Notes: generated from the sequence alone by a model not told the origin. 64,000 nucleotides of DNA from Verrucomicrobia bacterium UBA6982 (GCA_002448475.1 DJYI01000139.1:19732-83731), one strand, 5' to 3'; positions 23,438 through 46,830 are shown, counted from the first letter of the stretch. A program made the numbers and translations.

Positions 23438-23462
23438 GCCAAACACGAAATTGATCACAACC

Positions 23463-26458: not shown

Positions 26459-28246
26459 ATGAAACCAAAATTCACCCGCCCCTTTGTTTTTTCAATGGCG
26501 CTTCTTGTTGTTTGCGGCGTCCTGTTGTCTCTTTCAAGCTTCCGTGTTTCCGATTCGTTGCTCTGCTTTTCAATTCGCGCCGAACAGTTTTTCCATTTGC
26601 CATCAAACCGGGCTCCCGCCGGATTTCAGTTTTTGAGATTGCTCCGCGCTTCCATTTTTGCGATTCTGTCATGTCTTGTATTTTGGGCAACCCGCAAATC
26701 TTTGAATGAATCCGGACAAACATGCAACTGGCTGGCCAGAGCCATCATTTGCCTAGGTTTTTTCTTGCGATTTGATCTTTGGGCAACCAAGGACTTCTGG
26801 TGCGACACATGGGCGTTGAAGACCGCCATCCAAACGCATTCCGCACTTGAAATCCTGACCGGGCGGTTGGGATTCAACCAGGCGGCGCCTGTCGGTTTTT
26901 CGTTGCTCGAAAAGGCCGTTGGCGTTGTTTCCGGTTATTCCGGAACGGCGATGACTCTTCCGCTGTTGCTGGCCGGATGCGCGTCATTGGCGGCCTTGTC
27001 CCGCGTAACGGAGCGGTGCGGTTCGGTGCGCTGCAAAATGGTGTCGCTGGTCATGCTTTTCGTTTTTGCCGTGAACCCTTCTTTCGTGTATTACAGTGCG
27101 GAACTCAAGCCGTATGGCTTTGATCTGCTTGTTTCGGCACTCGCAGTCTTGCTTGTGATCGATTTCCAGAATGGAGAATCGAGCTGGAAGAAACTTGTCT
27201 GTTTTTCAGCTTTTGCGCCGTGGTTCTCCTTGCCTTCGTTTTTCGTCCTTTTTTCCCTTTATGCCGCATTGGCCTTTTTTTTCTTCTCGGATCACGCGCG
27301 GATTCGATGTCTGGTTCTCTGTGCGGCCATTTCAGGGGCATTGGCGATATTCCCGCTAATCCATGCATTCGCGACCATGCCGGCGGCCATGGACAATGTC
27401 CAAGACTTGTTCGCTCCGGTCACATGGTCCAAAGGAGCTCTTCTATGGTGGACGGGGCGGCTTCTTCATTTTTTCCGCGGTCCGGCATATTTCGGTTTCA
27501 CCTCATGGAGCCTGTTCTCTCCTTTTGCATTGCTGTCATTGATTCCCCTTGGATTGTTTTCGCTCGGGGTGTGGCAGCGAAGACGAGACCCCCTGGTTTG
27601 GATGTCGTTGCTTTGCATCGCTTTCACCTTTTTCGCATCGGCCTGTCACTATTGGAAGATCAATCCGGGTACAAGTTTGACCGGCGGACGCCTTATTCTC
27701 TTTTTGACTCCGTTCGCGTATCTGCCGCTTGCTAGCGGGTTGCACTGGATGGCCACGAAGAATAAAGCCGCCGGAGCCGCGACATGCGCTTTTGCCTTGG
27801 TTTCGGCTTGCTTGTGGTTTTTCCAGCAGACACCCATTTCCTGTCCCATGAACGACATAGCTACACGGGTTACCGTTCAACGAAAGCCGGGAGATATTAT
27901 TCTTTGCGACGAAATCATGCTGCTTGCTCTCATTTCCGAAAACGCCGAGCGGACAATCAAGGCGTCTGAGGACATCTTGATGGTGTATTCCAGCCCGTCA
28001 TATGATGACGTCGAGTTCGCCAGTCTGGACCATTATCTGCCACGACATCGAAGAAAACTGGATTCTGAACGAGAACACGTAGTTTCCCAAATGCTGTCTT
28101 TTTTTTCGGAGGGCGGGCATGCCAGTCTGCTCGTCTACCCGACGCACAAACGAAGTGCCGATATGGCGAATGGCCTTTCTGTGAACTTTTCGAACGACAT
28201 AATTGATGCAGTAATCCGCCCATGGGTCGCATTTGTCCGCCTTTAA
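26459..28246 (+). CDS. Polytopic membrane protein (595 aa) with the same architecture as the upstream gene, a probable paralog
   Basis: A multi-TM N-terminus with a ...DLWATKDFWCDTWALK... loop and a C-terminal soluble domain. It sits in a lower-GC segment. Confidence 0.45.
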   Translation: MKPKFTRPFVFSMALLVVCGVLLSLSSFRVSDSLLCFSIRAEQFFHLPSNRAPAGFQFLRLLRASIFAILSCLVFWATRKSLNESGQTCNWLARAIICLGFFLRFDLWATKDFWCDTWALKTAIQTHSALEILTGRLGFNQAAPVGFSLLEKAVGVVSGYSGTAMTLPLLLAGCASLAALSRVTERCGSVRCKMVSLVMLFVFAVNPSFVYYSAELKPYGFDLLVSALAVLLVIDFQNGESSWKKLVCFSAFAPWFSLPSFFVLFSLYAALAFFFFSDHARIRCLVLCAAISGALAIFPLIHAFATMPAAMDNVQDLFAPVTWSKGALLWWTGRLLHFFRGPAYFGFTSWSLFSPFALLSLIPLGLFSLGVWQRRRDPLVWMSLLCIAFTFFASACHYWKINPGTSLTGGRLILFLTPFAYLPLASGLHWMATKNKAAGAATCAFALVSACLWFFQQTPISCPMNDIATRVTVQRKPGDIILCDEIMLLALISENAERTIKASEDILMVYSSPSYDDVEFASLDHYLPRHRRKLDSEREHVVSQMLSFFSEGGHASLLVYPTHKRSADMANGLSVNFSNDIIDAVIRPWVAFVRL

Positions 28247-28295
28247 CCCCATTGCCATGATCACAAACCACGCGATGACTCCCGACAGAACCAAT

Positions 28296-29555
28296 ATGAA
28301 GGCGCCACGCATTTTGTGTTTCGGCGCCCATCCGTTTCCGACATCAATGCGCCCCGTCGGCTCTTACTTCGACGCCAGGCTTCTTTTCCGCATGACAGGC
28401 GGGAATCTCGGTAATTGCATAATTGGCGAATACGCTCGTAAAACGATTCGCGGACAGTTCACTGACATAACACATTTTCCAGGCCACCTTCCTTTCTCGG
28501 CTGAAGAAGCCAACGAGAGGTTCGATCATGTCTTGATTGTGGCCGCAAACTGGTTCACCTGCAATTGGCTGTCCGATTTTTCAAAAGAGATCAATTGGTT
28601 CCACAACCTTCGAATTCCCGTGACCGTCGTAGGCCTTGGGCAACAGTTGCCAAATGGAGCGGTCTCCCGCGATGATCGTATTCGTTTCGCGAAATCCGTC
28701 CCGGATAGTTTCGTTCGGTTGCTACGCGTCTGGCTCGACCATGGTCCGTCGATTGCCGTCAGAGGAGAGATCTCCCGCGAACTGCTTGCCCATGTCGGAA
28801 TCCGTGCGGTCATCCCGACCGGTTGCCCAACTTGGTTCGTCAACGGCGGCAACCAGCCGGATATCGTCACAAAGGACCATCTCGACCCCCACACCCGCAT
28901 CGCTATCCATGGAACCCTTCGGACAGCGGGAGAGATCTTTCGTCTTTCTTCGTCCCACCAGAACGCCGTTTATGTTATTCAATCGGAAATTCCATTCGTT
29001 CCGTTTTCGGGAAGGCACCCGCCTTCGGGCTGGCGGCTTCCCCTGTTTCTTCGCCACGCTTCCGGCCTGAAGCCGTCTATGATGTCCGGACGCGATCCGC
29101 TGTTTGTCCACTTCTCCCAACTTTCGGACTGGGAGGGTTTTCTTCGGTCCTGCGCATTCTCTTTCGGAAGAAGAATCCACGGAACAATTTGCGCCATCAA
29201 AAACGGCATCCCGGCCGTCATCGTACGGCACGACCAGAGAATCGCTGAGTTCGTCGATCTCTTCCGAATCCCTTCCGTGTCCTCCTCCGACCTGCAACGG
29301 CCCGAGTTCTCGTTGTCTTCGGCATACCAACATGCCGACTTCTCGGACATGAACCGCGCCTATCCCTCGCTTTTGGATCAGTATCAGACTTTCCTTCGGT
29401 CCCATGGTCTTTCGCCGGCATGTAGAACCATTCGGCAAGACCAAAAATCGGAAATCGACTATCCGGCGTTCAGATCCTTCGAGACAAACGTCTTTGAATG
29501 GAAATGGGAGCTGGGGCTAGTGAGGCAAAAAATCAGAAAGCGATTGTGGAGATGA
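28296..29555 (+). CDS. Polysaccharide pyruvyl transferase family protein (CsaB/WcaK-like), copy 1
   Basis: MKAPRILCFGAHPF...TGGNLGNCIIGEYA... follows the PS_pyruv_trans N-terminal pattern (GxGNxGD-like). The start is the ATG at 28296. Confidence 0.55.
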   Translation: MKAPRILCFGAHPFPTSMRPVGSYFDARLLFRMTGGNLGNCIIGEYARKTIRGQFTDITHFPGHLPFSAEEANERFDHVLIVAANWFTCNWLSDFSKEINWFHNLRIPVTVVGLGQQLPNGAVSRDDRIRFAKSVPDSFVRLLRVWLDHGPSIAVRGEISRELLAHVGIRAVIPTGCPTWFVNGGNQPDIVTKDHLDPHTRIAIHGTLRTAGEIFRLSSSHQNAVYVIQSEIPFVPFSGRHPPSGWRLPLFLRHASGLKPSMMSGRDPLFVHFSQLSDWEGFLRSCAFSFGRRIHGTICAIKNGIPAVIVRHDQRIAEFVDLFRIPSVSSSDLQRPEFSLSSAYQHADFSDMNRAYPSLLDQYQTFLRSHGLSPACRTIRQDQKSEIDYPAFRSFETNVFEWKWELGLVRQKIRKRLWR

Positions 29556-29626: not shown

Positions 29627-30022
29627 ATGAAAACAGGAATCACATTCGGGACATTCGACGTCTTCCACTACGGACATCTTCGAATACTGGAACGATCGCG
29701 CGAACTCTGCGACCGGCTGGTCGTCGGCATCTCCAGTGATGAACTCAATTTCTCGAAAAAAGGGAGAATGCCGTACTACAGCTTTGACGAAAGGTCCCGC
29801 ATCGTCGGTGCTCTCAAATGCGTCGACGAAGTGTTCAAGGAAGAATCTCTTGAACTCAAGGCAGAATACATCAAGCGGTTCAAAGCCGACGTCCTCGTTA
29901 TGGGCGACGATTGGAAAGGCAAGTTTGACTGGGTCATACCCTTGACAGGCTGCGCGGTTTTCTATCTTCCGCGGACACCTGCAATTTCAACAACGGCCAT
30001 TGTCGAAAAAATCCGAAATTGA
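29627..30022 (+). CDS. tagD: Glycerol-3-phosphate cytidylyltransferase (TagD-like)
   Basis: 131 aa, MKTGITFGTFDVFHYGHLRILERS..., carrying the HxGH nucleotidyltransferase motif, with TagD-like size and sequence. Confidence 0.85.
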   Translation: MKTGITFGTFDVFHYGHLRILERSRELCDRLVVGISSDELNFSKKGRMPYYSFDERSRIVGALKCVDEVFKEESLELKAEYIKRFKADVLVMGDDWKGKFDWVIPLTGCAVFYLPRTPAISTTAIVEKIRN

Positions 30023-30094: not shown

Positions 30095-31651
30095 TTAGGC
30101 GGCAGACCGTCTCACCCTGAACAAACGACGAATCCACGCCACGGCGAATCGCCGTTCTTCGTTGTCAAGAACAAACAGTATCGACCCGGTAGCAAGGCTA
30201 GTCGTTGTCGCGAGGCCAACTGCCAAAATACGCCAGACGGACGCCGGCGCCGCGCCCTGCACGGCGAATCCGGCGAGAAAGGCGAGGACGACGACGGCAA
30301 GGAGCGGAGCCACGATCCGGAAACACCAATGCCGCAGGGACATCCCGCAAAGCCGCCAGCCGAAGATGGCCCGTTCCAGCGAGAGCAGCGAGTAGCTGAT
30401 GACGAACGACAGCCCGATGCCGAGAGCCCCCCAACCCGCCTTGACGAACGCATAGACGAAGACGAGCGTCGACAGGGATGTGATGCCCAGGACGAAATTG
30501 AAAAGCCCGATCCGACCCTTTGCGGCAACCATCAGATGCTGTCCGATTCCGAGCTTGTGGCAGATCAACGCACACAGCAGGCAACGGCAGAGCGTCGCCG
30601 TCCCGTCGGGCGGCGTCTCGAGCCAGATGCGGAGAACCTCATCGATCTCCACCACGAGCGGAACCGCGAAAAGGGCAGTGAGGAGCACGGCGAACTTTCC
30701 ACTCCGGAACGCCAGGGCAACGGCGCTGCCGCTATTCTTCGCCCCTTCGGCCGTCGTAACGGCCGGAGCCATCGCGCCGAGAAGCGCAGAGGTGAACGAC
30801 CCCGTATGTGCCGAAATGTGCAATGTGATGCTGTAGGACGCATTCATCGCGGGTCCGAAGAAACGGTTGATGATAAACGCGGTTCCGTTCTTGCGAGCGA
30901 TGTCCCCTCCGCAGCTGAACAACTCCCAGAACGCGTATCGGAAAAGGGGTAGGATCCGCGCGCGGTCGAACATCATGGACGGTCGAACTCGACAATCGCC
31001 GAATGTCCGCCAAGCGCGAAACATCTGGGCGAGCTGGACTGCGATTCCCGGAATCACCAGCATCATCGAATAGCAGACGAGTCGGTCTCCCTGCACGAAG
31101 AGCAGGCGGTACGCAAGCCCCAGCAGGAGCAGCGCCTGAAAAACACCCCAAAAGGCCAGTTCAGAAATGAGCTGTTGCGCCTTGTACATTGAGATGAATG
31201 GCACCGATGCAACCGTGCAGAACAAGCTTGCCATCGACAATCGAAACACCCAAATGCATGCATCAACTCGATCAGGCGGAATCACGAACCAATGGCGGAT
31301 GGCATAGGAGCCGACCGGATAGCCGATAGCGACTAGGACCGCAGGCAGGATGAGATGGATCGAGAGTGCCGCGTTGAACCACCGCTGAACATCTTCGCAT
31401 TCCTCACGCCAGCTTTTTACGCCCGACTTGCCGATCGCATATGCGAGAAACCGCGAGACAGCCAACCCTAGTACATTGTTGAAAACGGAAACGAAAGCGA
31501 TGAAACTTCCGACAAGCGCGAAAAGCCCCAAATCGCGCTCTCCGAGCGCACGAAACACCCATCTGCTCGTAAAGAGAGCGACAAACAGGACGAAAACGGA
31601 TCGCCCATAAGTCGTAATTGTGTTGACAATGATTCGCCGCGTTGCTGTCAT
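30095..31651 (-). CDS. wzx: Wzx-type polysaccharide/oligosaccharide flippase (MOP superfamily)
   Basis: 518 aa with about 14 TM segments, resembling the polysaccharide biosynthesis protein family. It is the last gene of the long minus-strand operon. Confidence 0.7.
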   Translation of the reverse strand: MTATRRIIVNTITTYGRSVFVLFVALFTSRWVFRALGERDLGLFALVGSFIAFVSVFNNVLGLAVSRFLAYAIGKSGVKSWREECEDVQRWFNAALSIHLILPAVLVAIGYPVGSYAIRHWFVIPPDRVDACIWVFRLSMASLFCTVASVPFISMYKAQQLISELAFWGVFQALLLLGLAYRLLFVQGDRLVCYSMMLVIPGIAVQLAQMFRAWRTFGDCRVRPSMMFDRARILPLFRYAFWELFSCGGDIARKNGTAFIINRFFGPAMNASYSITLHISAHTGSFTSALLGAMAPAVTTAEGAKNSGSAVALAFRSGKFAVLLTALFAVPLVVEIDEVLRIWLETPPDGTATLCRCLLCALICHKLGIGQHLMVAAKGRIGLFNFVLGITSLSTLVFVYAFVKAGWGALGIGLSFVISYSLLSLERAIFGWRLCGMSLRHWCFRIVAPLLAVVVLAFLAGFAVQGAAPASVWRILAVGLATTTSLATGSILFVLDNEERRFAVAWIRRLFRVRRSAA

Positions 31652-32986: not shown

Positions 32987-34027
32987 CTACCTTCCTCCGA
33001 ACAGGACGGCGGATGTTTTCGGCATGGTTCTTTTCAACAGTTCCGCAATGGCGAGGGAAACGGCGAACGCGAAGACGGCGACACCCAGATACGCCACCGT
33101 GCTTCTTCCGGGATGCAAATACGCCTTGACGGGGAGAAGAACGAATTTGTGGACAAGGTAAACGCCGAACGAACTGGAAACAAGCCACTCGGGCCATCGA
33201 CTGTCGCCCATCAGGCCCCAAACGCCGTACAGGGTGAACGGAACGCACAGGAAGCCGAGATGCTCCGCCGCCGGAAGCCCCTTCAAGACGAAGAATGCCC
33301 TGAATACAGCCAGACCGATTCCGACAGTCAGCGAAACGACAGGGGGGGGGGGCTGAAATCCACGATTCCTTTCTGTAGCGCAAGGCCGAGCGAAAAAAAA
33401 GAACAGGCCCAGCACAGGAAAGATTCCGACTCGGGCGAATTCTTCCCATTGCCCCGCGTTCGGCAACGGCCAAAACGGACAGACCGCAGCATAAACGACG
33501 AACAAAAGCAGCAGAAACCATCCTCGGAATTTCTTCAGGCACCAGACGAATGCCGGAGACAAGACCACCAGGATGAACAGCGCCCGTACATACCACAGCG
33601 GAGTCAGATAGGGGCATCGAGTGGGCCACAGACCGATTTGCCTCAACGTCGGAAACGTGAACGACACGGTTCTTCCGTGGAGGAGCGAATGGGCGTTCTT
33701 CCAGAGGAAATTCTCCAGCCAGAACAGCGCATTCCAGAGGACAAAGGGAACGAGAAGCGTTCGGACACGTTTGCCTACGGCTTTCCGGTATCCCTTCCCT
33801 TGCAGACTACGCCCCACCATGTAGCCGGACACGGTGAAGAAGAACGGGACTGCGATCTGCGTCACGCCGTTTTCAAGGATTTCCTCCAGCCACCAGCCGG
33901 TCGTTCCGCGCCCGAAATGCGGACGGCAATGGATGATCACCACGAGGAATGCGCATAAAATCCCCATGTTCCTGATTTTGCGGCTCGCCGCCTCGGTCAA
34001 TGTTCCGCGTTCATTCATTCCTAACAT
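32987..34027 (-). CDS. Acyltransferase family 3 membrane O-acyltransferase (paralog 3); carries the poly-C(11) and T8 homopolymers
   Basis: ...[19 protein letters not shown]... is the AT3 N-terminal signature, followed by a multi-TM body. Its 5' end overlaps the aminotransferase 3' end by 8-17 nt. Confidence 0.7.
33342..33352. repeat. Homopolymeric G(11) on the plus strand, which is C(11) on the coding strand and encodes QPPPP inside the acyltransferase-3 gene
   Basis: Counted directly: a-ggggggggggg-c at 33341-33353. A second T8 run on the coding strand (A8 on plus, 33393-33400) lies 40 nt away in the same gene. Confidence 0.9.
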
Positions 34028-35111
34028 ATCCCAAAACGGCCTTCAAGGCGTTGACGAGCGAATCATAATCCGCCTCTGTAAGGCATCCCATGTGTCCGAC
34101 TCGGAACACTTTGTCTTTCAAATCCCCGCCGTTGGGGCAAATCCAGATGCCGTGTTCGTTCTTGAGTTTGAGGAAGATGTCGAATGCGGACATGCCGTTC
34201 GTAGGGTGGAGCGGCGTCACGGCGTTGCTCAGTCTTTCGCTGACGATTTCAAGAGGCAGGTCCGCGATCTTCGAACGGAAGTATACCGCCATCCTCTTCG
34301 CTTTTGCGACCTCTGCGGCGACACCACCTGCCGCATCAATCGCCTTCAACCGCGCATGGATCTGCAACAGCGTCCCGACGGCGGGCGTGAACGGCGTCTG
34401 CCCCCTCACTTGATTCGCAAGAGCGTCTTTCAGGTCGAAGTAAAGGCACTTCGGGTCGTTCCTGGTGACCCGTTCCAGTGCGCGTGGAGAAAGGACGATG
34501 ACGCTCACCCCCGGAGGACACGCTAGGGCCTTCTGCGATCCGGTAATCATGACGTCCGCGCCCAGCGCCGCCATGTCGAAGTCGTCGCACAGGAACGAGC
34601 TGATGTTGTCGACGATCAAAAGCAGGTCGTTTTCCTTGCAAAAATCAGAAATCAGACGCATGTCGTAGTGTACGCCCGTGCTGGTCTCGTGCTTGTTGAC
34701 CAAAAAGGCCGAATAGGCGCTTTTGCCTTCTCCGCGCCTCCGCGTCTCCGCGTTGGACAAATCGTCTATTGTCAGCGCTTTTCCGGTCTCCAGTTTGATT
34801 TCGTCGTGCGGGATGCCGTGGATTTCGCAGATTTTGCAAAAACGGGCGCCAAAACTCCCGCCATTGACGACCAAAGCCCGGTCCTCCGGCGTGAGCAGGT
34901 TCATCGCGGCCGCTTCCATGGAGGCCGTGCCGGACCCCGTGATGAAGACAGCCCGCGACCCTTCGGGGGCGCCGGCGAACTTCAGCATCAGCCGTTCGTT
35001 TTCCAGCATGACGGAGGAAAACTCCGCCGTTCGGAAATAGGGAACCTGTTCGGCCCCGATGGCAAGGACTTCTCCCGGAGACTGGACCGGACCGACGGTG
35101 AAATTGATCAT
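34011..35111 (-). CDS. Class V aminotransferase (AGXT/PhnW/serine-pyruvate aminotransferase family), PLP-dependent
   Basis: [16 protein letters not shown]... has the TPGP-like start, and ...[18 protein letters not shown]... is the family consensus. The ATG at 35111 forms an ATGA overlap with the upstream stop. The ORF's 149 upstream codons overlap the upstream gene and are not expected to be translated. Confidence 0.7.
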
Positions 35112-36814
35112 GGCTTCGATTCCTCTGCAAGGGCTGCGGAAACCTTCTTTTCCAGGTCGCGATAGACGGACAGGCAGAACGGACCGTCCTCGGCCATGTC
35201 CGTGAACACTTCGAGCAGCACCGCGCCTTCCGGTCCTCGGGCGAATTCGGGAAGAACCTTCGAAAGGCTCTTTTCGTCCGTCGCCGAAAGATATTTGAAA
35301 CCGCATTCTTCCGCCCAGGCCCTGGCTGATCGGCCGTGACGGCATCCGATGTGGCGGTCTACCGTCGGCAGGGAATGGCTTGCTGGCGGGATGTGGAATT
35401 CCGCCGCCCCGCGGTTGTTGACCAGGAAAATCCTCACGTCTTTCGCGCGTTCCCGGATGGCCAGGGCGTTCATTCCGTAGAAGAAACTGAGATCGCCGAT
35501 AACGAGAAACGCCCGCCTTCCGCCGGCCACCGCCTGCCCAAGGAACGTTGGCAGGCATCCGTCGATGCCGAATGCGTTGATGTTTCCTGCGACGCGAACT
35601 CCTTCGGCCAGCGGGAAAAACTGCATCAGCCGAACGGCGTTGAGAATGCTCACATGGACGAGCGATTCCGGTGGAATCATGCTGGCCAGCGCCCCGACGG
35701 CGTAAAACTGCCCGTAGGGAAGCGGTGGCAGGACAGCGGCTTTTTCAAGGCGCTTCCAAAGTTTCAGGTAGCCACCCTCCCGCTTTCCGGTGGAGAGTTC
35801 GGACATCCGTTCGAGGAACGTTTCGACCTGGCACTCGAAAACCGCCGTCTGGCTCTTGAACACGTCACGGACAACGCCTTCCGGATCGATCGACCAATGC
35901 TCGAACTCTCCGCGGTGAGCCTTGAAAAGGTCCTTGATCCTTTCCTGGAAATTGGTGCCGAACGTGATGACGATGTCCGGAAGGACTTCTGCGAAGGTTT
36001 TTGACTTCAACCCCTTGCACACCGCCTCCGCCATGACGAACGTTTCCGTGCGGATGTTTGCGAAATGGTCCCCGAGAACAGGGGCGCGGAACCGTTTGCA
36101 GAAAGCTGACAGAGCGCGTTTTTCCGAAGCCGTCCAGCGGTCGCAGGCGCCGGCGATGACGAGGATGCGGCGCGCTTTTTCCAGGCGCTTCGCGAAATGG
36201 TTCCACGTCCGGCCGTCGTTTTCCCCAACCCAATCCACGAACCGATAGTGTATAGCTTTTCTCCCCTGCCCATCCGCGTTCCACATGGCGTTGGTGTCGC
36301 CGACCAGCGGAAGGTTGACATGGACGGGGCCTGGGCGGTGTCTCCGAAGTTCGACAAGGGCTTCGCTCAGCAATCGGGAAAAGTGCCAGACGTCATCTGT
36401 GTCTTTCAGGACGGGCAGACTCACGCTTTTTTTTGTGACAGACGCAAAAACGGCGGGTTGGTCGATCTTTTGCGTTTCCAGCTGATGGAGGACGTAGGGA
36501 CTTCGGTCCGCCGTGATCGCCAAGACGGGAACATGGGCGAAAAAGGCTTCCGTCATGCCGGACAGGTAGTTTGATGCGGCCGTTCCGCTCGTGCAGGACA
36601 ACCCGACAGGTTCGCCCAGTTCCTGAGCCAGCCCCAGTGCGAAGAAGGCTGCGCTGCGTTCATCCACCACGGAATGGCAGACGAAAAACGGATCGGACTC
36701 GACCGCCGTCACGAACGGGATGTTCCGCATGCCCGGAGACAGCACCAGATGGCGGACCCGGTAGTGCTTCAACGCTGAAACGAGGATGTCGATGGCAAGG
36801 GTGTTTGATGTCAT
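35108..36814 (-). CDS. MenD-family ThDP-dependent enzyme (SEPHCHC-synthase-like), possibly recruited to a non-menaquinone role
   Basis: The N-domain [16 protein letters not shown]...[13 protein letters not shown]...[12 protein letters not shown]...[10 protein letters not shown] is closely collinear with E. coli MenD (VRHICIAPGSRSTPL...DERGLGHLALGLA...TSGTAVANL...LTADRPPEL). The C-terminal ThDP motif is ...[12 protein letters not shown]...[14 protein letters not shown]...[11 protein letters not shown]. Confidence 0.65.
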
Positions 36815-36826
36815 GGAGAAGACCTT

Positions 36827-37726
36827 TCAAGTATTGCCAAAGGTAAAACGGCAATCGTCCTGCGTAAGATTACCGCAGCCGGCCGTCACGTAAAGGATGG
36901 ATCCAAGGACCATTCTGCCAAGCGACGATACGAGAACGACGGCGAGGTTCGCAACCTCGCTCTCCGCAATCAAGCGACCGCCCGGCATGCGAGGACGCGC
37001 AAATGATTTTCCTTTATTCGGTCCGAGAAAGGCTTCCGTCGCGGTGGGGCCAGGGGCGATGCCGTTCACGACGATTCCATATGGAGCAAGTGTTTTCGCC
37101 ATTCCAGGAACCAAGCCGCGCAATGCCCACTTCGCGAGATTGTAGGGGGAGTTTGCGGGACGCAGACTCGACGAAGAGCAGACGACGAGAATGTTTCGGT
37201 TCCCGCACTCGTCGTTCCGCGATATCCAGTCCTCTGCCGCACACTGAGAGAGAAAGTAGGCTCCGCGGAGGTTTGTTTCCATCACTTCGTCGAAATCTTC
37301 CGGCAATGTGCTGCCAAATCTGGCAAAATTGAGACTGCCGGCGTTGTTCACCAAAATGTCAATCCCGCGAAGGCCGCAACACGGGAGCGCATTCGCTTCC
37401 CTCCACTTGTCGCGAAACGACTCGACGCTTTTCATCTCCAATGCAATGCCGCAAACTCTATCTTCGGATGCGGATGTAGCACATTGCGCAAGTTCATCGA
37501 CGCGCCGATTCACGGCGTCACGGTTTCTTCCAGTAATGATGACGTTTCCGCCAGCCGACAATATGGCCTTTGCGGTCGCGAGACCGATTCCTCTGGTTCC
37601 ACCCGTGATCAAAGCGGTTCGCCCCGCCAGCAAATCGGAACGGAACGGTGAAATGCCATCGCCTTCAGGGAGGGGAATCGGCATCTGTTCCATCTCGTTC
37701 TCCGGGTTCATCGTGTCCGAGTCCAT
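36827..37726 (-). CDS. SDR-family short-chain dehydrogenase/reductase
   Basis: TGGTRGIGLA (the Rossmann TGxxxGIG motif), NNAG, ...SSSS... and YxxxK-like (PYNLAK). The ATG at 37726 overlaps the upstream stop. The track start at 37732 is a TTG. Confidence 0.75.
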   Translation of the reverse strand: MDSDTMNPENEMEQMPIPLPEGDGISPFRSDLLAGRTALITGGTRGIGLATAKAILSAGGNVIITGRNRDAVNRRVDELAQCATSASEDRVCGIALEMKSVESFRDKWREANALPCCGLRGIDILVNNAGSLNFARFGSTLPEDFDEVMETNLRGAYFLSQCAAEDWISRNDECGNRNILVVCSSSSLRPANSPYNLAKWALRGLVPGMAKTLAPYGIVVNGIAPGPTATEAFLGPNKGKSFARPRMPGGRLIAESEVANLAVVLVSSLGRMVLGSILYVTAGCGNLTQDDCRFTFGNT

Positions 37727-37728
37727 GT

Positions 37729-38826
37729 TCAAAGGCGGTTGAGTGATTCGGAAAGAAAAGCCCGGGACTCATTTCGGACGGCTTCGATCCGCCCGCAGAC
37801 TTCGGCAAAATCCGTCGGCGATTCGTACGCAAAGCCCGTTTCCGCTCTCGGGATGCCGATCCAATCGGCGAGTTCCTCCATTTTCGTATCGCACTGCTCC
37901 CGCGTGAAAACGGAGAACGGTCGCCGGTAGTGGATGGCGAAAATCATTCCGTGGTAGGAATTCGTCACCACGAACTCCGCTTCGCGCACCAGCCCGAGAA
38001 ACTCTTCCACGCCGGCGTCGTATCGCATCTCATGCCCCATTTCGGCATGCGACGCCCGGATGCTGATTTCCACGACCCGCCAGCCGTTCCGTTTTGCCAG
38101 ATCCGACGCGAATGCCGTCATGCGCGGATCGTCACGGCGGGAATAAAGCAACAGGAATGGTTCCTTCTTGTTTGGGGATTTCGCGATCAAGTCATAATCG
38201 GACCGGGCCAAAAGCAGCGTGGGATCGCACACGCGCCGGACGGGCACCTCCGTCGCCGTGCGGACCCGGTCCATCAAAGTCGTTTCCCGCAGACCGATTG
38301 CTTTGAAATTCCGCATTCTGGCGTCGAGAACGGGCAGCTGGTCCGGGCGGAAATGAGGTGTTCCGAAACTCGGCGCATAGGCGACGGACCGCCCCTGCAT
38401 CACGGCGTAATTGGCGTAGTATCCGTCGTCCATTCCGAACTCGTCCGGGCAGAAAATCGTGTCGCTCCCGCAAACGAAACCATCAAGGCCCTCACGTTTC
38501 ATGCAGTCGCCGAAATTCGCGGAGGTATATACGCCGACGGAACGAGGGCAGCATTCCCGGTAGAATCGGTCGAACTTGCCATAATTGACACGGATCGCCG
38601 GCATGGACGCCTCGACCATCCGGCGCGAGGCGTCATCCTTGTCCCACATGTTCCGGAACGGATCGAGCGGGTTCTTGTCCTTGAGGATGTCGGGGCAGTA
38701 ATCGATCAGGACGGGTTTGTTTCCCGTCTTTTCGATGGAACGACAAAGCGCCCAGCTCTGCAACGCCGATCCGTAGTTGGTGAAGTTGCAGTGGATGTTG
38801 TAGCTGATGACACCTAAACGTTTCAT
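37729..38826 (-). CDS. Polysaccharide pyruvyl transferase family protein, copy 2
   Basis: MKRLGVISYNIHCNFTNYGSALQSWAL... and ...VVTNSYHGMIFA... (like the TDSYHG motif) match the PS_pyruv_trans family. Confidence 0.55.
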   Translation of the reverse strand: MKRLGVISYNIHCNFTNYGSALQSWALCRSIEKTGNKPVLIDYCPDILKDKNPLDPFRNMWDKDDASRRMVEASMPAIRVNYGKFDRFYRECCPRSVGVYTSANFGDCMKREGLDGFVCGSDTIFCPDEFGMDDGYYANYAVMQGRSVAYAPSFGTPHFRPDQLPVLDARMRNFKAIGLRETTLMDRVRTATEVPVRRVCDPTLLLARSDYDLIAKSPNKKEPFLLLYSRRDDPRMTAFASDLAKRNGWRVVEISIRASHAEMGHEMRYDAGVEEFLGLVREAEFVVTNSYHGMIFAIHYRRPFSVFTREQCDTKMEELADWIGIPRAETGFAYESPTDFAEVCGRIEAVRNESRAFLSESLNRL

Positions 38827-39746
38827 CGGATGTAGCGATCACTTTTCGCCAATTGTGTGGGTCCGAACTTCCAAGCCACGGCTTTGCAATCGCGATGTTT
38901 CGGAATGCGTTGTTCAACAGGGGGAAGCCTCATATAATTTCCAAAACAAATCCGGAGCGTCTCCTCGACTTGAACTGGAACGGGCGCCAGTCGTCCAGCG
39001 AATGGAATGAATCGCTGTTCAGAAAAAGCTGATGTGGGAAAGAAATCTGGAATCTCGTCAATGCGCAACCCAAAAGCGCCGCAAAAACGACTCTGCCCAA
39101 ACGGGACAGACCGGGCGATTCGTTCGGAAATACGGCAACGGTCACCAAGAGAATCAAAACCCGGGAAGAAGATTCCCGCGCATGCACCAATCAATCGGAC
39201 AAGCCGGTGTCGTAATCCCTTTCCTTTTCCATGTGCCAAAAACGAGATTCGCGCACGAAGCATCCTGCGAAGAAACTTCCGTCGAGTTCGGGACAAACTG
39301 GAATCAGGGTAGCCATCCAAAGGAAAAACATCCACGTAAATCCCATGAGGCAGAGTGTGTCCAAGGCGTTGCTCAACCCGGGAAATCACGCTCCGATCCG
39401 TTTCTTGCACTTTTCCGTAGATCTCTGGCATCTCGGGCGTATTCTTCCAATCGATCCACTTCATGTCAGCCGGAAGTTCCTTCTCCGCAATGCAAACAAA
39501 CCGATCATAGTCTCCCCTCGGCATATGGATGTCCAAATCGTCATCCCAAGGAATAAAGCCTCCATGTCGAATTGCGCCAAGCGCAGAACCATACGCAAGA
39601 AAGAACTGAATCCCATGACGGGAGGCGATTTCCGCAATGGCATCGTAGACTCGAAGCATCGCCTCCCAATGGTCGCGAAGGCCGGGGAAAGAAATCGGTT
39701 GAAATGAATCAGACACATATGTCACATCAGTGTTCCTTTCCAGCAA
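38823..39746 (-). CDS. LicD-family phosphotransferase (transfers phosphocholine, or alditol/glycerol-phosphate from a CDP donor), copy 1
   Basis: ...HGIQFFLAYGSALGAIRHGGFIPWDDDLDIHMPRGDYDRF... is the LicD core, with DDD catalytic residues. The start is uncertain: the track's 39746 is a TTG, and an in-frame ATG at 39659 is an alternative. Confidence 0.7.
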   Translation of the reverse strand: MLERNTDVTYVSDSFQPISFPGLRDHWEAMLRVYDAIAEIASRHGIQFFLAYGSALGAIRHGGFIPWDDDLDIHMPRGDYDRFVCIAEKELPADMKWIDWKNTPEMPEIYGKVQETDRSVISRVEQRLGHTLPHGIYVDVFPLDGYPDSSLSRTRRKFLRRMLRARISFLAHGKGKGLRHRLVRLIGACAGIFFPGFDSLGDRCRISERIARSVPFGQSRFCGAFGLRIDEIPDFFPTSAFSEQRFIPFAGRLAPVPVQVEETLRICFGNYMRLPPVEQRIPKHRDCKAVAWKFGPTQLAKSDRYIR

Positions 39747-40923
39747 TAATCTTTCTCACGTTGCGCGCGAAATCACGAGCGAAGACAACTGCTGTGCGAT
39801 GCGCAAACTGCCGAACGAGACATTCGTCATGGGCCAAACTGAGATTAGCAAAAAACGACGAAACACCCACCGCATTCGTCGCCCAAGAACGTTCCGAGAT
39901 CGCGAGGGCCCGGGCGTTACGGCGCATCTCCGTAATACGTTCTGGATCGCAGGCCAAGGATTCCATTGTCTCGGCCAGATGATCCTCGTCAACACTACAC
40001 ATGGGCCAATAGTAACCATCACAACGTGGCTCGTGACTGGCAACACGGACGCACACGCCACTGTCTTCGTCAGGAAATTCATTCATTGGAGGCTCATCTG
40101 GAACAACAACCGGAAGACCGCATGACAATGCCTCGCAGACGGTAAGTCCGATTCCGTCAAGGCGGCTGGGATAGACATAGACATCGCCCAGATGATAGGC
40201 GCCTGGTGCTGGTATCGTTTCTTTCAGAAGTGTCAGACGTCCTGAGAAAAGAAGTTGCTCGACGATTTCGCGCAAATTCGGAAAAGCCGAAAGAATGTCC
40301 TTCTGGGCGTGGACAACAAGTTTTGCGGGAGCCCTAACATGGAAAAATGCCCGCAACAGCAAGTCTGTTCCCTTCCGTTTGGGAGAAAAACCTGCACTGT
40401 GAAAAAAAGTCACCACGCCTGATTCGACGAGCGCCGGCCAGCAGCTGGACGGCTTGAAGAGTTCAACATTCGTCCCCCAAGGAATATAAAGACACTGCGG
40501 ATGCCAGCCGAAAACGGAAGCGTGCCTTTTGGTATTGCAGATCAGTCCGTCGTAAATCGCGAAATCGCGAACCGTGTACTTCGTGTAGTAGTCCACATAG
40601 GCAACGGTTTTCACCCCCAACCGGGTACAGAGTGCCGCCGGCCAAAGCGTCCTTTGCTCGTTGAAGAGAACCGCGGACACCCCGGTTTCCCGAAGCCAAC
40701 GCCGGAAGTCCCGGGGGGAAATGCCGGACCGGTCCGCGTCGGCGGAACGCGCAGCCCAATGGATGCGCGGCCCGTCCCAGTTCGGATCGCCGACGGCAAA
40801 CGCCTCCCCGCCGCGGGCGAAAACGAAAACCTCGTGCCCCGCCCGCTCGAGCACATCACGGTATTGACGCGACACATAGGCCGCACCTCGCTCAAACCAA
40901 GTCGTGACGATGCCGATTCTCAT
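39727..40923 (-). CDS. Family 4 (GT-B) glycosyltransferase
   Basis: MRIGIVTTWFERGAAY... (a GT-B N-domain) and a C-terminal ...CEALSCGLPVVVPDEPPMNEF... (EX7E-like), typical of Glycos_transf_1. Confidence 0.65.
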   Translation of the reverse strand: MRIGIVTTWFERGAAYVSRQYRDVLERAGHEVFVFARGGEAFAVGDPNWDGPRIHWAARSADADRSGISPRDFRRWLRETGVSAVLFNEQRTLWPAALCTRLGVKTVAYVDYYTKYTVRDFAIYDGLICNTKRHASVFGWHPQCLYIPWGTNVELFKPSSCWPALVESGVVTFFHSAGFSPKRKGTDLLLRAFFHVRAPAKLVVHAQKDILSAFPNLREIVEQLLFSGRLTLLKETIPAPGAYHLGDVYVYPSRLDGIGLTVCEALSCGLPVVVPDEPPMNEFPDEDSGVCVRVASHEPRCDGYYWPMCSVDEDHLAETMESLACDPERITEMRRNARALAISERSWATNAVGVSSFFANLSLAHDECLVRQFAHRTAVVFARDFARNVRKIIAGKEH

Positions 40924-42080
40924 GAAAGGACTTCTGTAGCTCCAAATAAGTGCGACTCCACCGCATCGACAATCCGGACTGCTGCTCGACCATCGCCGTA
41001 TGGATTCGCAACGCCGGACATGCGCCGGTATTCATCCAAATCGGACAAAAGTCGTTCGACACCGGAAACAATCAAGTCCTCCTCCGTTCCGACCAGCCGA
41101 CTCGTCCCGGCTGTAACCGCTTCGGGACGTTCAGTCGTTCTGCGCATAACGAGAACCGGTTTTCCGAGACTCGGCGCTTCCTCTTGAACGCCGCCCGAGT
41201 CAGTCAAGACAAGGAAAGAACGTTTCATCAAGGCCACAAACGCCAGATACGGCTGTGGTGGAATCAAATGGACGTTCGAGCGATTGCAACCTACAATGTC
41301 GAAAACCGGCTTCTGGACGTTGGGGTTAAGATGGACAGGATAGACGAAGTGGACGCCTGGGTTGTCGGTTGCGAGACGAACAAGCGCATTGCAGATGTGT
41401 AAAAAACCTTCACCAAAACTTTCTCGACGGTGGCCTGTGACTAATACCATCCTTTCCTTGCCCAAAAACCAATCCGAATCAGAAATCCCCTCAATGACAG
41501 GTGGAGCCTTTTCGACCGTGGAATTTGCGAAAAAAAGAGCATCGATCACCGTGTTCCCCGTCACCATCACCGCGTTCGGGTCTATTCCTTCACGGAGAAG
41601 ATTGGCGTATGCGCTATCCGTTGGTGCAAAGTGAAGCGTTGAAAGACGCGTCGTAAGTACGCGGTTCGCCTCTTCAGGCCATGGGGCGTATAGATTGCCA
41701 GTACGAAGGCCAGCCTCAACATGACCAACGGGAATTCGATGGTAAAATGCAACCAGAGATGCTGCGAAAACAGTAGTTGTATCCCCCTGTACGAGAACAA
41801 AATCCGGCCTCTCGGAAGTAAAGTAACGATCAATCGACTCAATCAGACGCGCAGTTAAACCTGACAAAGTCTGATCAGCCATCATGAGATCAAGATCCGC
41901 ATCCGGCAGAATATCGAAAACCGGCAGAACCTGATCAAGCATCTGTCTGTGCTGCCCAGTTACGCAAACGGAGCCTTCTAGTCGATCACGCTTCCGCAAT
42001 TCGAGAACAACGGGAGCTAGTTTGATTGCTTCCGGTCGCGTCCCGAACACAACGGAAACTTTCTTTTTGGAACTAGACAT
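40920..42080 (-). CDS. wecB: UDP-N-acetylglucosamine 2-epimerase (non-hydrolysing)
   Basis: VSVVFGTRPEAIKLAPV...HVEAGLRTGN...VLTDSGGVQEEAP... are WecB/MnaA hallmarks. The start is the internal ATG at 42080, which overlaps the upstream stop. Confidence 0.85.
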   Translation of the reverse strand: MSSSKKKVSVVFGTRPEAIKLAPVVLELRKRDRLEGSVCVTGQHRQMLDQVLPVFDILPDADLDLMMADQTLSGLTARLIESIDRYFTSERPDFVLVQGDTTTVFAASLVAFYHRIPVGHVEAGLRTGNLYAPWPEEANRVLTTRLSTLHFAPTDSAYANLLREGIDPNAVMVTGNTVIDALFFANSTVEKAPPVIEGISDSDWFLGKERMVLVTGHRRESFGEGFLHICNALVRLATDNPGVHFVYPVHLNPNVQKPVFDIVGCNRSNVHLIPPQPYLAFVALMKRSFLVLTDSGGVQEEAPSLGKPVLVMRRTTERPEAVTAGTSRLVGTEEDLIVSGVERLLSDLDEYRRMSGVANPYGDGRAAVRIVDAVESHLFGATEVLS

Positions 42081-43224
42081 GTCTGAAAATCCTTTCGTAA
42101 AACCTGAAATGGGCGGCAGCAACAACAGAGGGAGACATGTATGAACGAATTCTACTTCGAGCCTCTTCCGCCACAGACATATTGTAGGATTCAGCAAAGA
42201 CTGAGATCAACACTCGGGCTATGGCGGCGGCATCCCGTTGTGGGACAACAGTCGCGTTTCCAAATCGTCGGGCGTTCTCGGCAAGGGCAGTTCCTTCTGC
42301 GACGACACCATGGCACCCACGCATGAGTCCTTCAATCAACTGGTTGCCAAACATCTCTTCAAGCGAGGGAGCAACGATAACGCGACAATGATCAAGAATA
42401 GAAAACAATTCTCGCGAGGAAACTCGCCCGTGCAAAAACAAGGAGTCTCCAAGTACCAAACGCAGATCCCGAAGGCACCTACCAGCGGCTCCCTGTGCAT
42501 TATTCTCGGAAGGATTCCCCATGACGTGCAATTGCAAGTCTGGAATAACCCTAATCACATTTCGCAAAGCATCAACAAGATACTTTACTCCCTTGCGTTC
42601 GTCCATTGTCCCCACATATGCAACCGCATGGCCGGATCGCGGCACGAGGGGTCCGTCGAGCCTGGGTTCGTAGGTGTTCGGGATCAGCGTCAGGTCCAGA
42701 TGCGGATACTGCCTTGCAAGGGCTTCTTTCACATATTCGCTTTTTGCCACGACGAAGCGAGTTTTCCGAAGGACCATGTCCTCACCCCAGCGCAGGAATC
42801 GCTCGTTCCAAGTCGGCGCGCGGCCAAGTGCCGGGAGAATCTGGAAAAATAGCCCCTGAGCCGTGATGCAAAAGGGGAGCCCGGAGCGAATCGCCGCATG
42901 TCCGTAGGCGGCTTCTGTACCATGAGCATGAACCACGGTAGGAGCTAGTATTCGAACGAGACGAGCCATGCGCCAGGCATCAAGCGCATAAAACGTAAAC
43001 TGGCGATAAGGATGAAAGGAGCGGAGGAAATGAACAGGAATCCCCTCGATTTCGCAGTCAAAATCGCAAGTAGCCTTGTGGGCTTGAGATATGATCGAGA
43101 CATCTATCCCAGCCGCTTTCTGCGCAAGGGCGTGATTCAAGACCCACCGACCAGGATGTTGCTTAACTTGCTTACTCCTAATGTCGTCAGGAACTGGGAC
43201 ACTCCCTAGATGGACAATTTTCAT
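42073..43224 (-). CDS. Family 4 (GT-B) glycosyltransferase
   Basis: MKIVHLGSVPVP... plus ...EEMFGNQLIEGLMRGCHGVVAEG... (EX7E). The ATG at 43224 forms an ATGA overlap with the upstream stop. The ORF's 51 upstream codons are probably not translated. Confidence 0.7.
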   Translation of the reverse strand: MKIVHLGSVPVPDDIRSKQVKQHPGRWVLNHALAQKAAGIDVSIISQAHKATCDFDCEIEGIPVHFLRSFHPYRQFTFYALDAWRMARLVRILAPTVVHAHGTEAAYGHAAIRSGLPFCITAQGLFFQILPALGRAPTWNERFLRWGEDMVLRKTRFVVAKSEYVKEALARQYPHLDLTLIPNTYEPRLDGPLVPRSGHAVAYVGTMDERKGVKYLVDALRNVIRVIPDLQLHVMGNPSENNAQGAAGRCLRDLRLVLGDSLFLHGRVSSRELFSILDHCRVIVAPSLEEMFGNQLIEGLMRGCHGVVAEGTALAENARRFGNATVVPQRDAAAIARVLISVFAESYNMSVAEEARSRIRSYMSPSVVAAAHFRFYERIFRHV

Positions 43225-46826: not shown

Positions 46827-46830
46827 TAGC

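Follow-up and report, generated by a model that had tools for sequence, protein, structure and literature searches.

A MenD-like thiamine diphosphate enzyme linked to a polysaccharide pyruvyl transferase and a reductase in a surface-glycan operon of Verrucomicrobia bacterium UBA6982

MenD, the 2-succinyl-5-enolpyruvyl-6-hydroxy-3-cyclohexene-1-carboxylate (SEPHCHC) synthase, is the archetypal natural Stetter enzyme: an acyl anion bound to thiamine diphosphate (ThDP) is added to the beta-carbon of an alpha,beta-unsaturated carboxylate (PMC2914249). The megapolipeptin gene cluster codes for a ThDP lyase/'SEPHCHC synthase' (MgpL) and for a 'polysaccharide pyruvyl transferase' (MgpK). Megapolipeptin A contains 2-hydroxy-4-oxoheptanedioic acid, which is ether-linked via C2, and the authors proposed that MgpK and MgpL build this unit via 1,5-dicarboxy-3-oxopentyl phosphate (PMC11411415, PMC13291983, PMC12964715). 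Among glycans, sugar 2-ethers of 2,4-dihydroxypentanoic acid are found in Providencia alcalifaciens O-antigens (PMC10609480). Here we analyze a 64,000 nt stretch of DNA from Verrucomicrobia bacterium UBA6982 (GCA_002448475.1, DJYI01000139.1:19732-83731), referred to as the window, with positions counted from its first letter. It carries the gene for a MenD-family ThDP enzyme in a surface-glycan operon.

The ThDP enzyme and its partners

The ThDP enzyme and two genes encoded just ahead of it are at the center of this analysis:

37729-38826, minus strand: polysaccharide pyruvyl transferase (PvT), 365 aa; PS_pyruv_trans (PF04230), 104.7 bits against a gathering threshold of 25.3, profile positions 1-278 of 280
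36827-37726, minus strand: classical short-chain dehydrogenase/reductase (SDR), 299 aa; adh_short, 117 bits; motifs TGxxxGIG and YxxxK
35108-36814, minus strand: MenD-family ThDP enzyme, 568 aa; TPP_enzyme_N; TIGR00173, 253.2 bits

The ThDP enzyme is separate from the menaquinone MenDs, is functionally linked to PvT, and is encoded in a glycan context. Judged from its sequence, it appears to be a neofunctionalised MenD paralogue which serves surface-glycan decoration and is not a SEPHCHC synthase. We are highly confident that PvT, ThDP enzyme, and reductase form a glycan-tailoring unit and that this enzyme is not MenD. The most likely product of the cassette is a side group of unusual, acidic or amino-acid-like character on a surface polysaccharide. 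The original prediction, based on the same DNA, of a new accessory pathway for a surface glycan thus stands as to the glycan accessory pathway; the word 'new' has to be softened because a PvT and MenD-like pair has already been proposed for the 4-oxoheptanedioate unit of the megapolipeptins.

The enzyme barely exceeds the cut-off of the menD model TIGR00173 (244.2 bits), and the best acetolactate synthase (ALS) model reaches 63 bits. Among PDB structures, the closest matches are to MenD (1e-43), compared to 1e-10 for ALS. This confirms the view that the enzyme is MenD-like rather than an ALS. The catalytic glutamate E52 and a cofactor/Mg motif of the type GD(G/L)-X24-27-NN, here G440-D441-L...N466-N467, are present and are invariant or nearly so throughout the clade.

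Eight active-site residues have been reported for BsMenD (R32, R106, R409, R428, K299, I489, F490, and L493), seven of which are strictly conserved; R428 mainly serves alpha-ketoglutarate, R409 both substrates, and R32 and R106 isochorismate, while I489, F490, and L493 form a hydrophobic wall (PMC2914249). The window enzyme has kept R30, R104, R395, and F473 from this set. It has substitutions at R428 (I412), I489 (E472), and L493 (P476), and the position of K299 falls into an alignment gap beside R292. R428, I489, and L493 are retained in all 10 men-operon MenDs of our alignment. The ThDP enzymes of the fused clade (see below) also lack R409. The residues that bind the acceptor carboxylate (R33, R107, and Q118 in Ec numbering) are conserved, with Q118 invariant in 77 of 77 sequences; the window enzyme retains R104 and Q115. 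With its catalytic, cofactor, and acceptor residues in place, the enzyme is predicted to be catalytically competent.

Related loci were collected by an alignment-driven profile scan with one genome per species, which returned 259 relatives, and the best 80 loci were kept; a scan of the genome collection with the single ThDP protein as query gave no match. The 78 non-men loci counted below consist of 76 scanned loci, one locus from a metagenome-assembled genome (MAG; L004), and the locus on plasmid pRUMAL01 of Ruminococcus albus 7 (L086). They span at least six phyla. Carriers are rumen and gut Clostridia, Lachnospiraceae, Ruminococcus, Ligilactobacillus ruminis, Companilactobacillus, Enterococcus, Bifidobacterium, and Paraeggerthella, and further Bacteroidales, Akkermansia, Succinivibrionaceae, and Mollicutes. 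Cultured strains among the carriers are R. albus 7 (pRUMAL01 genes RUMAL_RS18335-18390), L. ruminis DSM 20403, Bifidobacterium pseudolongum 2093B, B. oedipodis DSM 109957, Companilactobacillus insicii DSM 29801, and Paraeggerthella hominis NSJ-152. As reference we used MenDs from the men operons of E. coli, S. aureus, Listeria, Anoxybacillus, E. faecalis, B. finegoldii, and P. distasonis (hits in the plasmid collection), all of which adjoin menF, menH, or menB. The men-type group also includes two scanned Bacteroides men-operon loci and L050, whose contig shows no men gene and which the tree groups with the men-operon MenDs.

A phylogeny against MenD had been suggested as a check along with the original prediction. 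In a neighbor-joining (NJ) tree of 87 sequences, 10 men-operon MenDs and 77 glycan-locus proteins are split in 195 of 200 bootstraps, and the window enzyme is nested in one subclade of the latter (199 of 200). We refer to the loci of this subclade (L004-L013 and L017) as Type I.

The context of the relatives is that of glycan loci: GT2 glycosyltransferases are neighbors in 42 loci and UDP-galactopyranose mutase (Glf) in 20, and ABC-2 exporters also occur. In a capsular polysaccharide (CPS) locus of Bacteroides thetaiotaomicron, the ThDP relative is accompanied by Wza/Wzc and an initiating transferase. The glycan-locus family coexists with a real men operon in Bacteroides and is also found in Bifidobacterium, Ligilactobacillus, and Ruminococcus. 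Homologues of MenF, MenB, MenC (OSBS), and MenE were not detected in the window by phmmer with a Bacteroides men operon, so that no other menaquinone gene is nearby, as had been predicted.

That the gene codes for the organism's real MenD and is merely located in a glycan operon is, in view of these data, highly improbable. Such a reading could point to the menD cut-off being passed, to the many family members which are named MenD by NCBI, and to the MenDs from Bacteroidales men operons, which with 33-34% sequence identity are as similar to the window enzyme as are distant members of its own clade. It is contradicted by the separate clade and the change of three strictly conserved substrate residues, by a window without men genes, and by PvT synteny or fusion in nearly all related loci. 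It also conflicts with the occurrence of the family in bacteria for which menaquinone synthesis is not known and, in Bacteroides, as a second copy beside the real MenD, and with the position of the gene in a low-GC island which has the look of horizontal acquisition.

The MenD name of the relatives (e.g., P0031, P0050, P0078, P0172, and P0217, which NCBI/JGI list under the full SEPHCHC synthase name) is assigned because the TIGR00173 cut-off is marginally passed. This affects a large family with hundreds of clusters at 50% identity, and automatic naming could lead to false menaquinone calls in gut Clostridia, bifidobacteria, and lactobacilli.

When the window proteins were searched for in the related loci, only the PvT encoded at 37729-38826 was found to accompany the ThDP enzyme nearly everywhere. 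The PS_pyruv_trans domain is distributed over the 78 loci as follows:

41 of 78 loci: fused to the N-terminus of the ThDP enzyme (proteins of ca 920 aa)
19 of 78 loci: adjoining the ThDP gene, on the same strand
14 of 78 loci: within 5 kb of the ThDP gene
4 of 78 loci: none found, one of these being a truncated contig

Synteny or fusion is thus seen in 74 of the 78 loci; in the window, the two genes are in the same operon with one gene in between. PvT orthologues in the 10 closest loci score 268-481 bits, and a search of PDB with the PvT sequence gave no match at E<=1. In the representative library (1901 clusters at E<=1e-30, true MenDs included), 28 of the best 150 exceed 800 aa. Pfam scans of such proteins revealed further domain combinations. 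In P0321 and P0322, the order is reversed (ThDP-PvT), which indicates an independent fusion. Fusions to an aldo-keto reductase (AKR) with an Fe-S domain (Fer4) occur in both orders (AKR+Fer4-ThDP in P0247, ThDP-AKR+Fer4 in P0371), and even longer arrangements are Fer4-FrhB-PvT-ThDP (L083) and GT2-extended SDR-ThDP-PvT (P0326).

The PvT tree, computed without bootstrap, mirrors that of the ThDP enzymes, and the second PvTs of the loci fall outside, including the second PvT of the window (28233-29555), which has no relative in any related locus. Taken together, these comparisons identify the PvT encoded at 37729-38826 as the predicted conserved functional partner of the ThDP enzyme. A possible relation to both pyruvyl transferases of the window had been envisaged; the first one proved to be real and key, while the conservation data lend nothing to the second.

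FrhB domains are also found next to PvTs. The glycan island of the window codes for an FrhB/FdhB-like flavo-FeS protein (15576-17624, plus strand), and in related loci FrhB is fused to PvTs (L083:7706-11605, L038:12636-17186, L044:3081-7112, and L068:5598-7925), the fusion types being FrhB-PvT, PvT-Fer4-FrhB-hexapeptide-epimerase, and Fer4-FrhB-PvT-ThDP. We know of no described function for this FrhB-like glycan-island protein, and a literature search for F420/FrhB together with pyruvyl transferase and carboxyethyl returned nothing usable. The protein may be a MurB-like reductase that converts enolpyruvyl ethers to lactyl (1-carboxyethyl) ethers. The FrhB-PvT fusions suggest that products of the PvT family could be redox substrates, which a ketal is not.

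The third member of the unit is a reductase. In 58 of the 78 loci, the ThDP gene has a reductase gene on its own strand at a distance of no more than 1.3 kb, mostly directly downstream. Four reductase folds occupy this position: classical SDR, zinc-dependent MDR, extended SDR/NmrA-like, and AKR with the Fer4 Fe-S domain. Four folds in one slot represent non-orthologous replacement of one pathway step, so that the ThDP product is expected to be a carbonyl compound. Orthologues of the window SDR follow the ThDP gene in L005, L011, and L017, and the window SDR can be assigned on sequence grounds to the reductase slot of a PvT-ThDP-reductase triad. The counts of fusions, adjacencies, and neighbors over the 78 loci thus define a conserved unit of PvT, MenD-like enzyme, and carbonyl reductase. 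In the original prediction, the unit had been composed of ThDP enzyme, aminotransferase, and SDR. This had to be revised: the reductase slot, which is filled by the SDR in the window, is widely syntenic, whereas the aminotransferase is restricted to the clade of the window.

Predicted chemistry of the side group

The following reaction scheme, including each chemical step, donor, acceptor, and order of steps, is what we infer for this unit. PvT would transfer an enolpyruvyl C3 unit, derived from phosphoenolpyruvate (PEP), to a hydroxyl group, either of the glycan itself or of an appendage bound to it. The MenD-like enzyme would decarboxylate a 2-oxo acid, and the resulting acyl anion would undergo 1,4-addition (Stetter reaction) to the CH2= of the enolpyruvyl group; alternatively, the acyl anion would be added to PEP first, with PvT then transferring the product. 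In both cases, the PEP-derived C3 unit (enol ether or PEP) is an alpha,beta-unsaturated carboxylate and therefore fits a MenD-type acceptor. The product would be an ether-linked 2-hydroxy-4-oxo acid, either C7 (from 2-oxoglutarate) or C5 (from pyruvate). The SDR could then reduce its 4-oxo group, which would give a 2,4-dihydroxy acid ether, or transamination could lead to a 4-amino acid. The predicted ketone would account for a near-universal reductase and, in the window, possibly for the aminotransferase. The skeleton of the Providencia dihydroxypentanoate ether is the C5 skeleton that would be expected from a pyruvate donor followed by reduction, a link which is drawn by chemical analogy.

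We consider ether-linked 2-hydroxy-4-oxo-acid chemistry to be somewhat favored by the available data. Our confidence in the exact product in this organism is low. In our literature searches, no paper was found in which the PvT and MenD-like pair, fusions of the two, or the accompanying reductase are described for glycan loci, and a review on pyruvylation mentions no ThDP enzyme.

Several points weigh against this scheme. The characterized PS_pyruv_trans enzymes all make cyclic ketals and not enol ethers, their mechanism being unexplored (PMC10435577), and the assignment of MgpK and MgpL in megapolipeptin biosynthesis is itself a proposal (PMC11411415, PMC13291983, PMC12964715). For all carrier organisms, the proposed steps are deduced from sequence and analogy. 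A single ketone is predicted for the PvT/ThDP product, yet the window has both a reductase and an aminotransferase. The donor is ambiguous, the alpha-ketoglutarate-binding arginine being lost and the R409 equivalent being kept. The best 120 matches to the gammaproteobacterial (Succinivibrionaceae) member include no enterobacterial protein, so that no homologue was traced to Providencia or to other bacteria with a known dihydroxypentanoate ether. Finally, our trees are NJ trees only and have no outgroup.

ThDP carboligase followed by reductase is also the known pattern in the biosynthesis of yersiniose, and MenDs do perform 1,2-additions to aldehydes in vitro. One could thus envisage a YerE/YerF-like route to a branched sugar, with 1,2-addition by the ThDP enzyme to a keto-sugar or aldehyde, reduction of the ketone by the reductase, and ketalization of the diol by PvT, which would then catalyze the sole activity shown for its family. 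We regard this as quite improbable. The nearest relatives of the window enzyme are MenDs, which are natural 1,4-adders, rather than enzymes from the ALS/YerE branch, and the residues for the MenD acceptor carboxylate are conserved. Neither a 4,6-dehydratase nor another enzyme generating a keto-sugar is a conserved neighbor, and the solved natural product that is tied to the enzyme pair carries a 2-hydroxy-4-oxo acid ether and no branched sugar.

The operon, its clade-specific arm, and the glycan island

We retain the ether-linked 2-hydroxy-4-oxo acid as the favored product of the triad and turn to the other genes of the operon, all of which are likewise encoded on the minus strand:

43221-44657, minus strand: Wzy-like polymerase; Wzy_C, 35.3 bits (cut-off 31.7)
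42073-43224, minus strand: family 4 glycosyltransferase (GT4); Glycos_transf_1/4 (Pfam/NCBIfam)
40920-42080, minus strand: UDP-GlcNAc 2-epimerase WecB; wecB TIGR00236, 485 bits
39727-40923, minus strand: GT4; Glycos_transf_1/4 (Pfam/NCBIfam)
38823-39725, minus strand: LicD-family phosphotransferase; LicD, 119.9 bits; 4 nt overlap with the PvT start
34011-35111, minus strand: class-V (AGXT/PhnW/SerC-like) aminotransferase, 366 aa; Aminotran_5
32987-34027, minus strand: Acyl_transf_3 membrane O-acyltransferase; Acyl_transf_3, 129 bits
31648-32979, minus strand: TagD-like cytidylyltransferase (CT) fused to a Gfo/Idh/MocA domain (CT-Gfo), 443 aa; CTP_transf_like at residues 5-125, GFO_IDH_MocA at 131-242
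30095-31651, minus strand: polytopic membrane protein, 518 aa, ca 12 hydrophobic segments; putative flippase, last gene of the operon

According to the gene calls from identical gut metagenome contigs, the operon consists of 12 genes from Wzy to the Wzx-like protein (Wzy, GT4, WecB, GT4, LicD, PvT, SDR, ThDP, aminotransferase, acyltransferase, CT-Gfo, and the 518 aa membrane protein), with overlaps of 4-17 nt and 12 nt as the widest gap. In the upstream part from Wzy to the second GT4 (39727-44657), neighboring genes overlap by 4-8 nt. The SDR stop codon is 12 nt ahead of the ThDP start, the ThDP stop (TGA) and the aminotransferase start (ATG) are shared as ATGA at 35108-35111, and the aminotransferase overlaps the acyltransferase by 17 nt (start at 34027) or, with an alternative ATG (start at 34018), by 8 nt. 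The latter three junctions had been noticed before and were reproduced from the minus strand and the list of open reading frames (ORFs).

The assignment as a Wzx/Wzy operon holds for the tight cluster and for Wzy. The 518 aa 'Wzx' protein has no match to Pfam or NCBIfam even at E 0.5; a weak collinear BLASTP match (E 0.004) was found to a flippase-family protein from Ruminococcus albus. Together with the hydrophobic segments and the operon position, this weakly suggests the label 'Wzx'. The span initially highlighted, 34011-37726, consists of real genes and omits PvT, LicD, and CT-Gfo, all three of which are integral parts of the cassette in the window.

Aminotransferase, CT-Gfo, and LicD join the triad only in Type I loci and on pRUMAL01 of R. 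albus 7, and ca 65 of the 78 loci lack aminotransferase, CT, and LicD. Where they do join, the genes mostly keep the order LicD-PvT-ThDP-reductase-aminotransferase-CT/Gfo. Eight of the 10 closest loci encode a LicD, and R. albus 7 has three copies. In the related loci, the aminotransferase always occurs with a nucleotidyltransferase and, except in L006 (no LicD match), also with LicD. The nucleotidyltransferase is a CT-Gfo fusion in 8 of 10 related Type I loci (orthologues at 460-544 bits). In L004, an enzyme of the HisC/CobD-like group, which is dependent on pyridoxal phosphate (PLP), and a LicC-like nucleotidyltransferase replace the aminotransferase and CT-Gfo, and in L013 these two are found alongside a copy of the class-V aminotransferase. 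The HisC/CobD-like enzyme scores 274 bits for hisC and 185 bits for CobD. The acyltransferase at 32987-34027 has no counterpart in the Type I loci; R. albus 7 has an 'acyltransferase' gene at a similar position. On this distribution, the acyltransferase gene appears to be an insertion in the window rather than a part of the conserved cassette.

Two related loci show deviations from the window. In a rumen Clostridia MAG (L010:9980-11704), the ThDP gene is split into two ORFs (117 aa, 414 aa), the cassette being otherwise intact; the gene has either decayed to a pseudogene or suffered a frameshift in assembly. A MAG of yak-rumen Clostridia has two genes for ATP-grasp ligases (L005:3851-6424) just upstream of the LicD-PvT-ThDP-SDR-aminotransferase cassette; the new carboxylate or amine may be joined in an amide bond by these ligases.

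The aminotransferase scores 153.9 bits for PhnW-AepZ (TIGR03301, cut-off 360.8), 109.3 bits for TIGR02326 (cut-off 400.8), and 155 bits for BhcA (cut-off 650). As the PhnW-AepZ and BhcA scores are far below their cut-offs, the protein is placed at the family level only. The closest structure is PDB 3F0H from Eubacterium rectale (453 bits), a structural-genomics entry without assigned function, which can be reused once the substrate of the aminotransferase is known. The CT domain matches B. subtilis TagD (1COZ) at 7e-37; it scores 111.7 bits for the TagD equivalog TIGR01518, which is below the cut-off of 165.4, and is clearly a member of the family. The Gfo domain is closest to sugar 3-ketoreductases.

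LicD-family proteins transfer phospho-alcohols from CDP-activated donors. A Gfo/Idh/MocA dehydrogenase combined with an aminotransferase is the standard solution for amination of nucleotide-linked alcohols (WbpB/WbpE, GnnA/GnnB), and HisC/CobD-like enzymes produce serinol or ethanolamine phosphates in Campylobacter capsule synthesis. Because the aminotransferase is confined to the clade of the window and occurs there with a nucleotidyltransferase and LicD, it may belong to a separate branch for a CDP-amino-alcohol. This second arm (CT-Gfo, aminotransferase, and LicD) would most plausibly make and transfer a CDP-activated amino-alcohol phosphate, with CDP-glycerol being oxidized to a 2-keto form and then converted into a product of the serinol type. 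The two versions of this arm (CT-Gfo with aminotransferase, and HisC/CobD-like with LicC-like enzyme) plausibly converge on a CDP-amino-alcohol for LicD. Alternatively, the aminotransferase could act on the ThDP product. The finished decoration would bear acidic and amino groups.

The same genes invite another reading, which resembles the layout of a 2-aminoethylphosphonate (AEP) cassette and treats PvT as an unrelated neighbor. The ThDP enzyme would decarboxylate a phosphorylated 2-oxo acid (e.g., 3-phosphohydroxypyruvate to phosphoglycolaldehyde), and aminotransferase, CT, and LicD would then act in turn to yield and attach a head group, a phosphoethanolamine-like amino-alcohol phosphate. 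In the clade of the window, the slots do match one by one (PEP/2-oxo-acid enzyme, ThDP enzyme, PhnW/SerC-like aminotransferase, TagD/ECT cytidylyltransferase, and LicD). The route needs a phosphorylated precursor from central metabolism because no kinase is present. We nevertheless consider it improbable. The near-universal and repeatedly fused partner of the ThDP enzyme is PvT, in contrast to the patchy occurrence of aminotransferase, CT, and LicD, and the reductase beside the ThDP gene in so many loci would be superfluous. The enzyme has the three-domain architecture of MenD and keeps the acceptor-binding residues R104 and Q115, while phosphono- and sulfopyruvate decarboxylases, with ca 380 aa, are unlike this architecture. 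Also, the CT domain is closest to glycerol-3-phosphate cytidylyltransferase, L004 keeps PvT and ThDP enzyme, its class-V aminotransferase being replaced by a HisC/CobD-like enzyme, which L013 has as well.

A genuine phosphonate pathway was also considered and rejected. The PEP mutase motif EDKxxxxxNS is absent from all six frames of the window, the island genes have no match to the PEP mutase family, and the aminotransferase is far below the PhnW/AepZ cut-offs, in line with the original statement that there is no PEP mutase and no AEP pathway. For a phosphonate route independent of PEP mutase, with a PvT-like enzyme acting as mutase, no support was found, and we judge it chemically implausible for the fold.

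Returning to the carbon-carbon bond-forming scheme with a second arm, a broader proposal can be made, which we put forward as tentative and rather doubtful. A MenD-derived 'Stetterase' and a PEP-dependent PvT, either fused or paired, might together represent a hitherto unrecognized type of glycan tailoring by C-C bond formation, in which a sugar-bound enolpyruvyl group is converted to C5-C7 hydroxy-, oxo-, or amino-acid ethers. This would be widespread in capsules, exopolysaccharides, and teichoic-acid-like polymers of gut and rumen bacteria, and the clade of the window would add a CDP-serinol-type phosphodiester, resulting in a zwitterionic decoration. If true, this would also supply the genes that have so far been lacking for the 2,4-dihydroxypentanoate ethers in O-antigens of enterobacteria. 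Natural Stetter-type ThDP enzymes are very few (MenD, and PigD with its relatives); if a clade used enolpyruvyl groups that are bound to glycans or derived from PEP, this would constitute a new class of carbohydrate-tailoring reaction and provide a useful biocatalyst. Non-sugar acidic or zwitterionic substituents dominate the antigenicity of commensal capsules, phage recognition, and immunomodulation.

The operon is part of a glycan-gene island of ca 35 kb (roughly 15.5-51 kb of the window), which is flanked by housekeeping genes. The island contains a second LicD, a second PvT, a free-standing TagD-like cytidylyltransferase, five Acyl_transf_3 genes, GT2 and GT4 genes, and the FrhB-like protein. 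Its GC content is 0.50-0.58 at 26-52 kb and 0.58-0.64 at 14-26 kb, compared to 0.62-0.67 over most of the flanks. Three relatives of the ThDP enzyme show 81-88% sequence identity and the next ones at most 60%; the few of the latter which are named are from Clostridia and Lachnospiraceae. Because of the low GC of the island and because the nearest further ThDP relatives are from Clostridia and Lachnospiraceae, the glycan cassette looks horizontally acquired, and we consider this likely from the sequence data. The cassette moves horizontally across phyla, the window being a case in which it resides in a gut Kiritimatiellia-like genome and has its nearest relatives in Clostridia.

At the island edge, there is a PD-(D/E)XK transposase-like gene (14096-15172) and an AbiEii-like AAA_21 gene (12065-13363). 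The number of Acyl_transf_3 genes in the island is unusually high (19274-20449, 23286-24587, 32987-34027, 45789-46826, and 46789-47889), and these five genes suggest heavy or variable O-acylation. Other decoration genes are the TagD-like cytidylyltransferase at 29627-30022 (plus strand; 131 aa, TIGR01518 129.6 bits, also below the cut-off), the second PvT at 28233-29555 (plus strand), and the second LicD at 49118-50074 (minus strand), which probably form a separate system in the island for decoration with glycerol-phosphate and pyruvate.

Five ORFs of 374-638 aa have no Pfam match. Four are inside the island: 24560-26440 and 26459-28246 (both plus strand, with hydrophobic N-termini), 17655-19307 (minus strand), and 44650-45774 (plus strand). 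The fifth, 8348-10264 (plus strand), is in the left flank. For 26459-28246 and 44650-45774, the two ORFs covered by the NCBIfam scan, there was no NCBIfam match either. Outside the island, a MurC-MurB fusion is encoded at 1979-4444 (minus strand), with Mur ligase domains followed by FAD_binding_4 and MurB_C; its named relatives are confined to Kiritimatiellae (ca 60% sequence identity) and Lentisphaerae, which assigns the window to a PVC-group bacterium of the gut.

Comparison with known systems

Compared to MenD itself, the window enzyme has the same ThDP fold with three domains, the same catalytic glutamate and cofactor motif, the residues R33/R107/Q118, and probably the same Stetter-type 1,4-addition. 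It differs in belonging to a separate clade without men context, in having lost the alpha-ketoglutarate arginine (R428) and the contacts to the isochorismate ring (I489 and L493), and in its partners, which are PvT and a reductase.

The logic of MurA/MurB, where an enolpyruvyl group is attached to UDP-GlcNAc and reduced to a lactyl ether, is similar in that an enolpyruvyl ether is converted to a stable carboxyalkyl ether by a second enzyme. In contrast to that pair, PS_pyruv_trans is unrelated to the MurA fold, and in our scheme it is an acyl anion on ThDP, not a flavin hydride, that would attack the C=C bond. True MurB analogues may be represented by the FrhB-PvT fusions of related loci.

AEP and phosphocholine cassettes (Ppm-Ppd-AEPT-PntC-LicD and LicABCD, respectively) also use an aminotransferase, a cytidylyltransferase, and a LicD-family protein for installation of a charged head group by a phosphodiester-type link. 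The window differs from the AEP cassette by having neither a PEP mutase nor a two-domain phosphonopyruvate decarboxylase, and its TagD-like CT is fused to a Gfo/Idh/MocA domain.

The dihydroxypentanoic acid 2-ethers of Providencia alcalifaciens have the skeleton that is predicted for PvT, a ThDP enzyme using pyruvate, and a reductase. The likeness is a chemical one, and a Providencia homologue was not among the best 120 matches to the Succinivibrionaceae query.

The closest described counterpart is the MgpK/MgpL pair from Paraburkholderia megapolitana, which also combines a PvT-family protein with a ThDP enzyme of the MenD/'SEPHCHC synthase' type, the two systems being likened by annotation and product description. 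The megapolipeptin unit is what a PEP-derived C3 unit and a ThDP-borne C4 acyl anion would give, and it calls for 2-oxoglutarate as donor. MgpK/MgpL differs in that it decorates the lipid tail of a lipopeptide, within a cluster for polyketide, nonribosomal peptide, and polyunsaturated fatty acid synthases (PKS/NRPS/PUFA synthase), its role there being proposed. The pair described here belongs to glycan loci, where fusions of the two are frequent and a reductase comes next, joined in the window by an aminotransferase and a CDP-alcohol/LicD arm. It provides candidate genes for two structures that are orphans so far, namely the dihydroxypentanoate ethers and the Hoha unit of the megapolipeptins.

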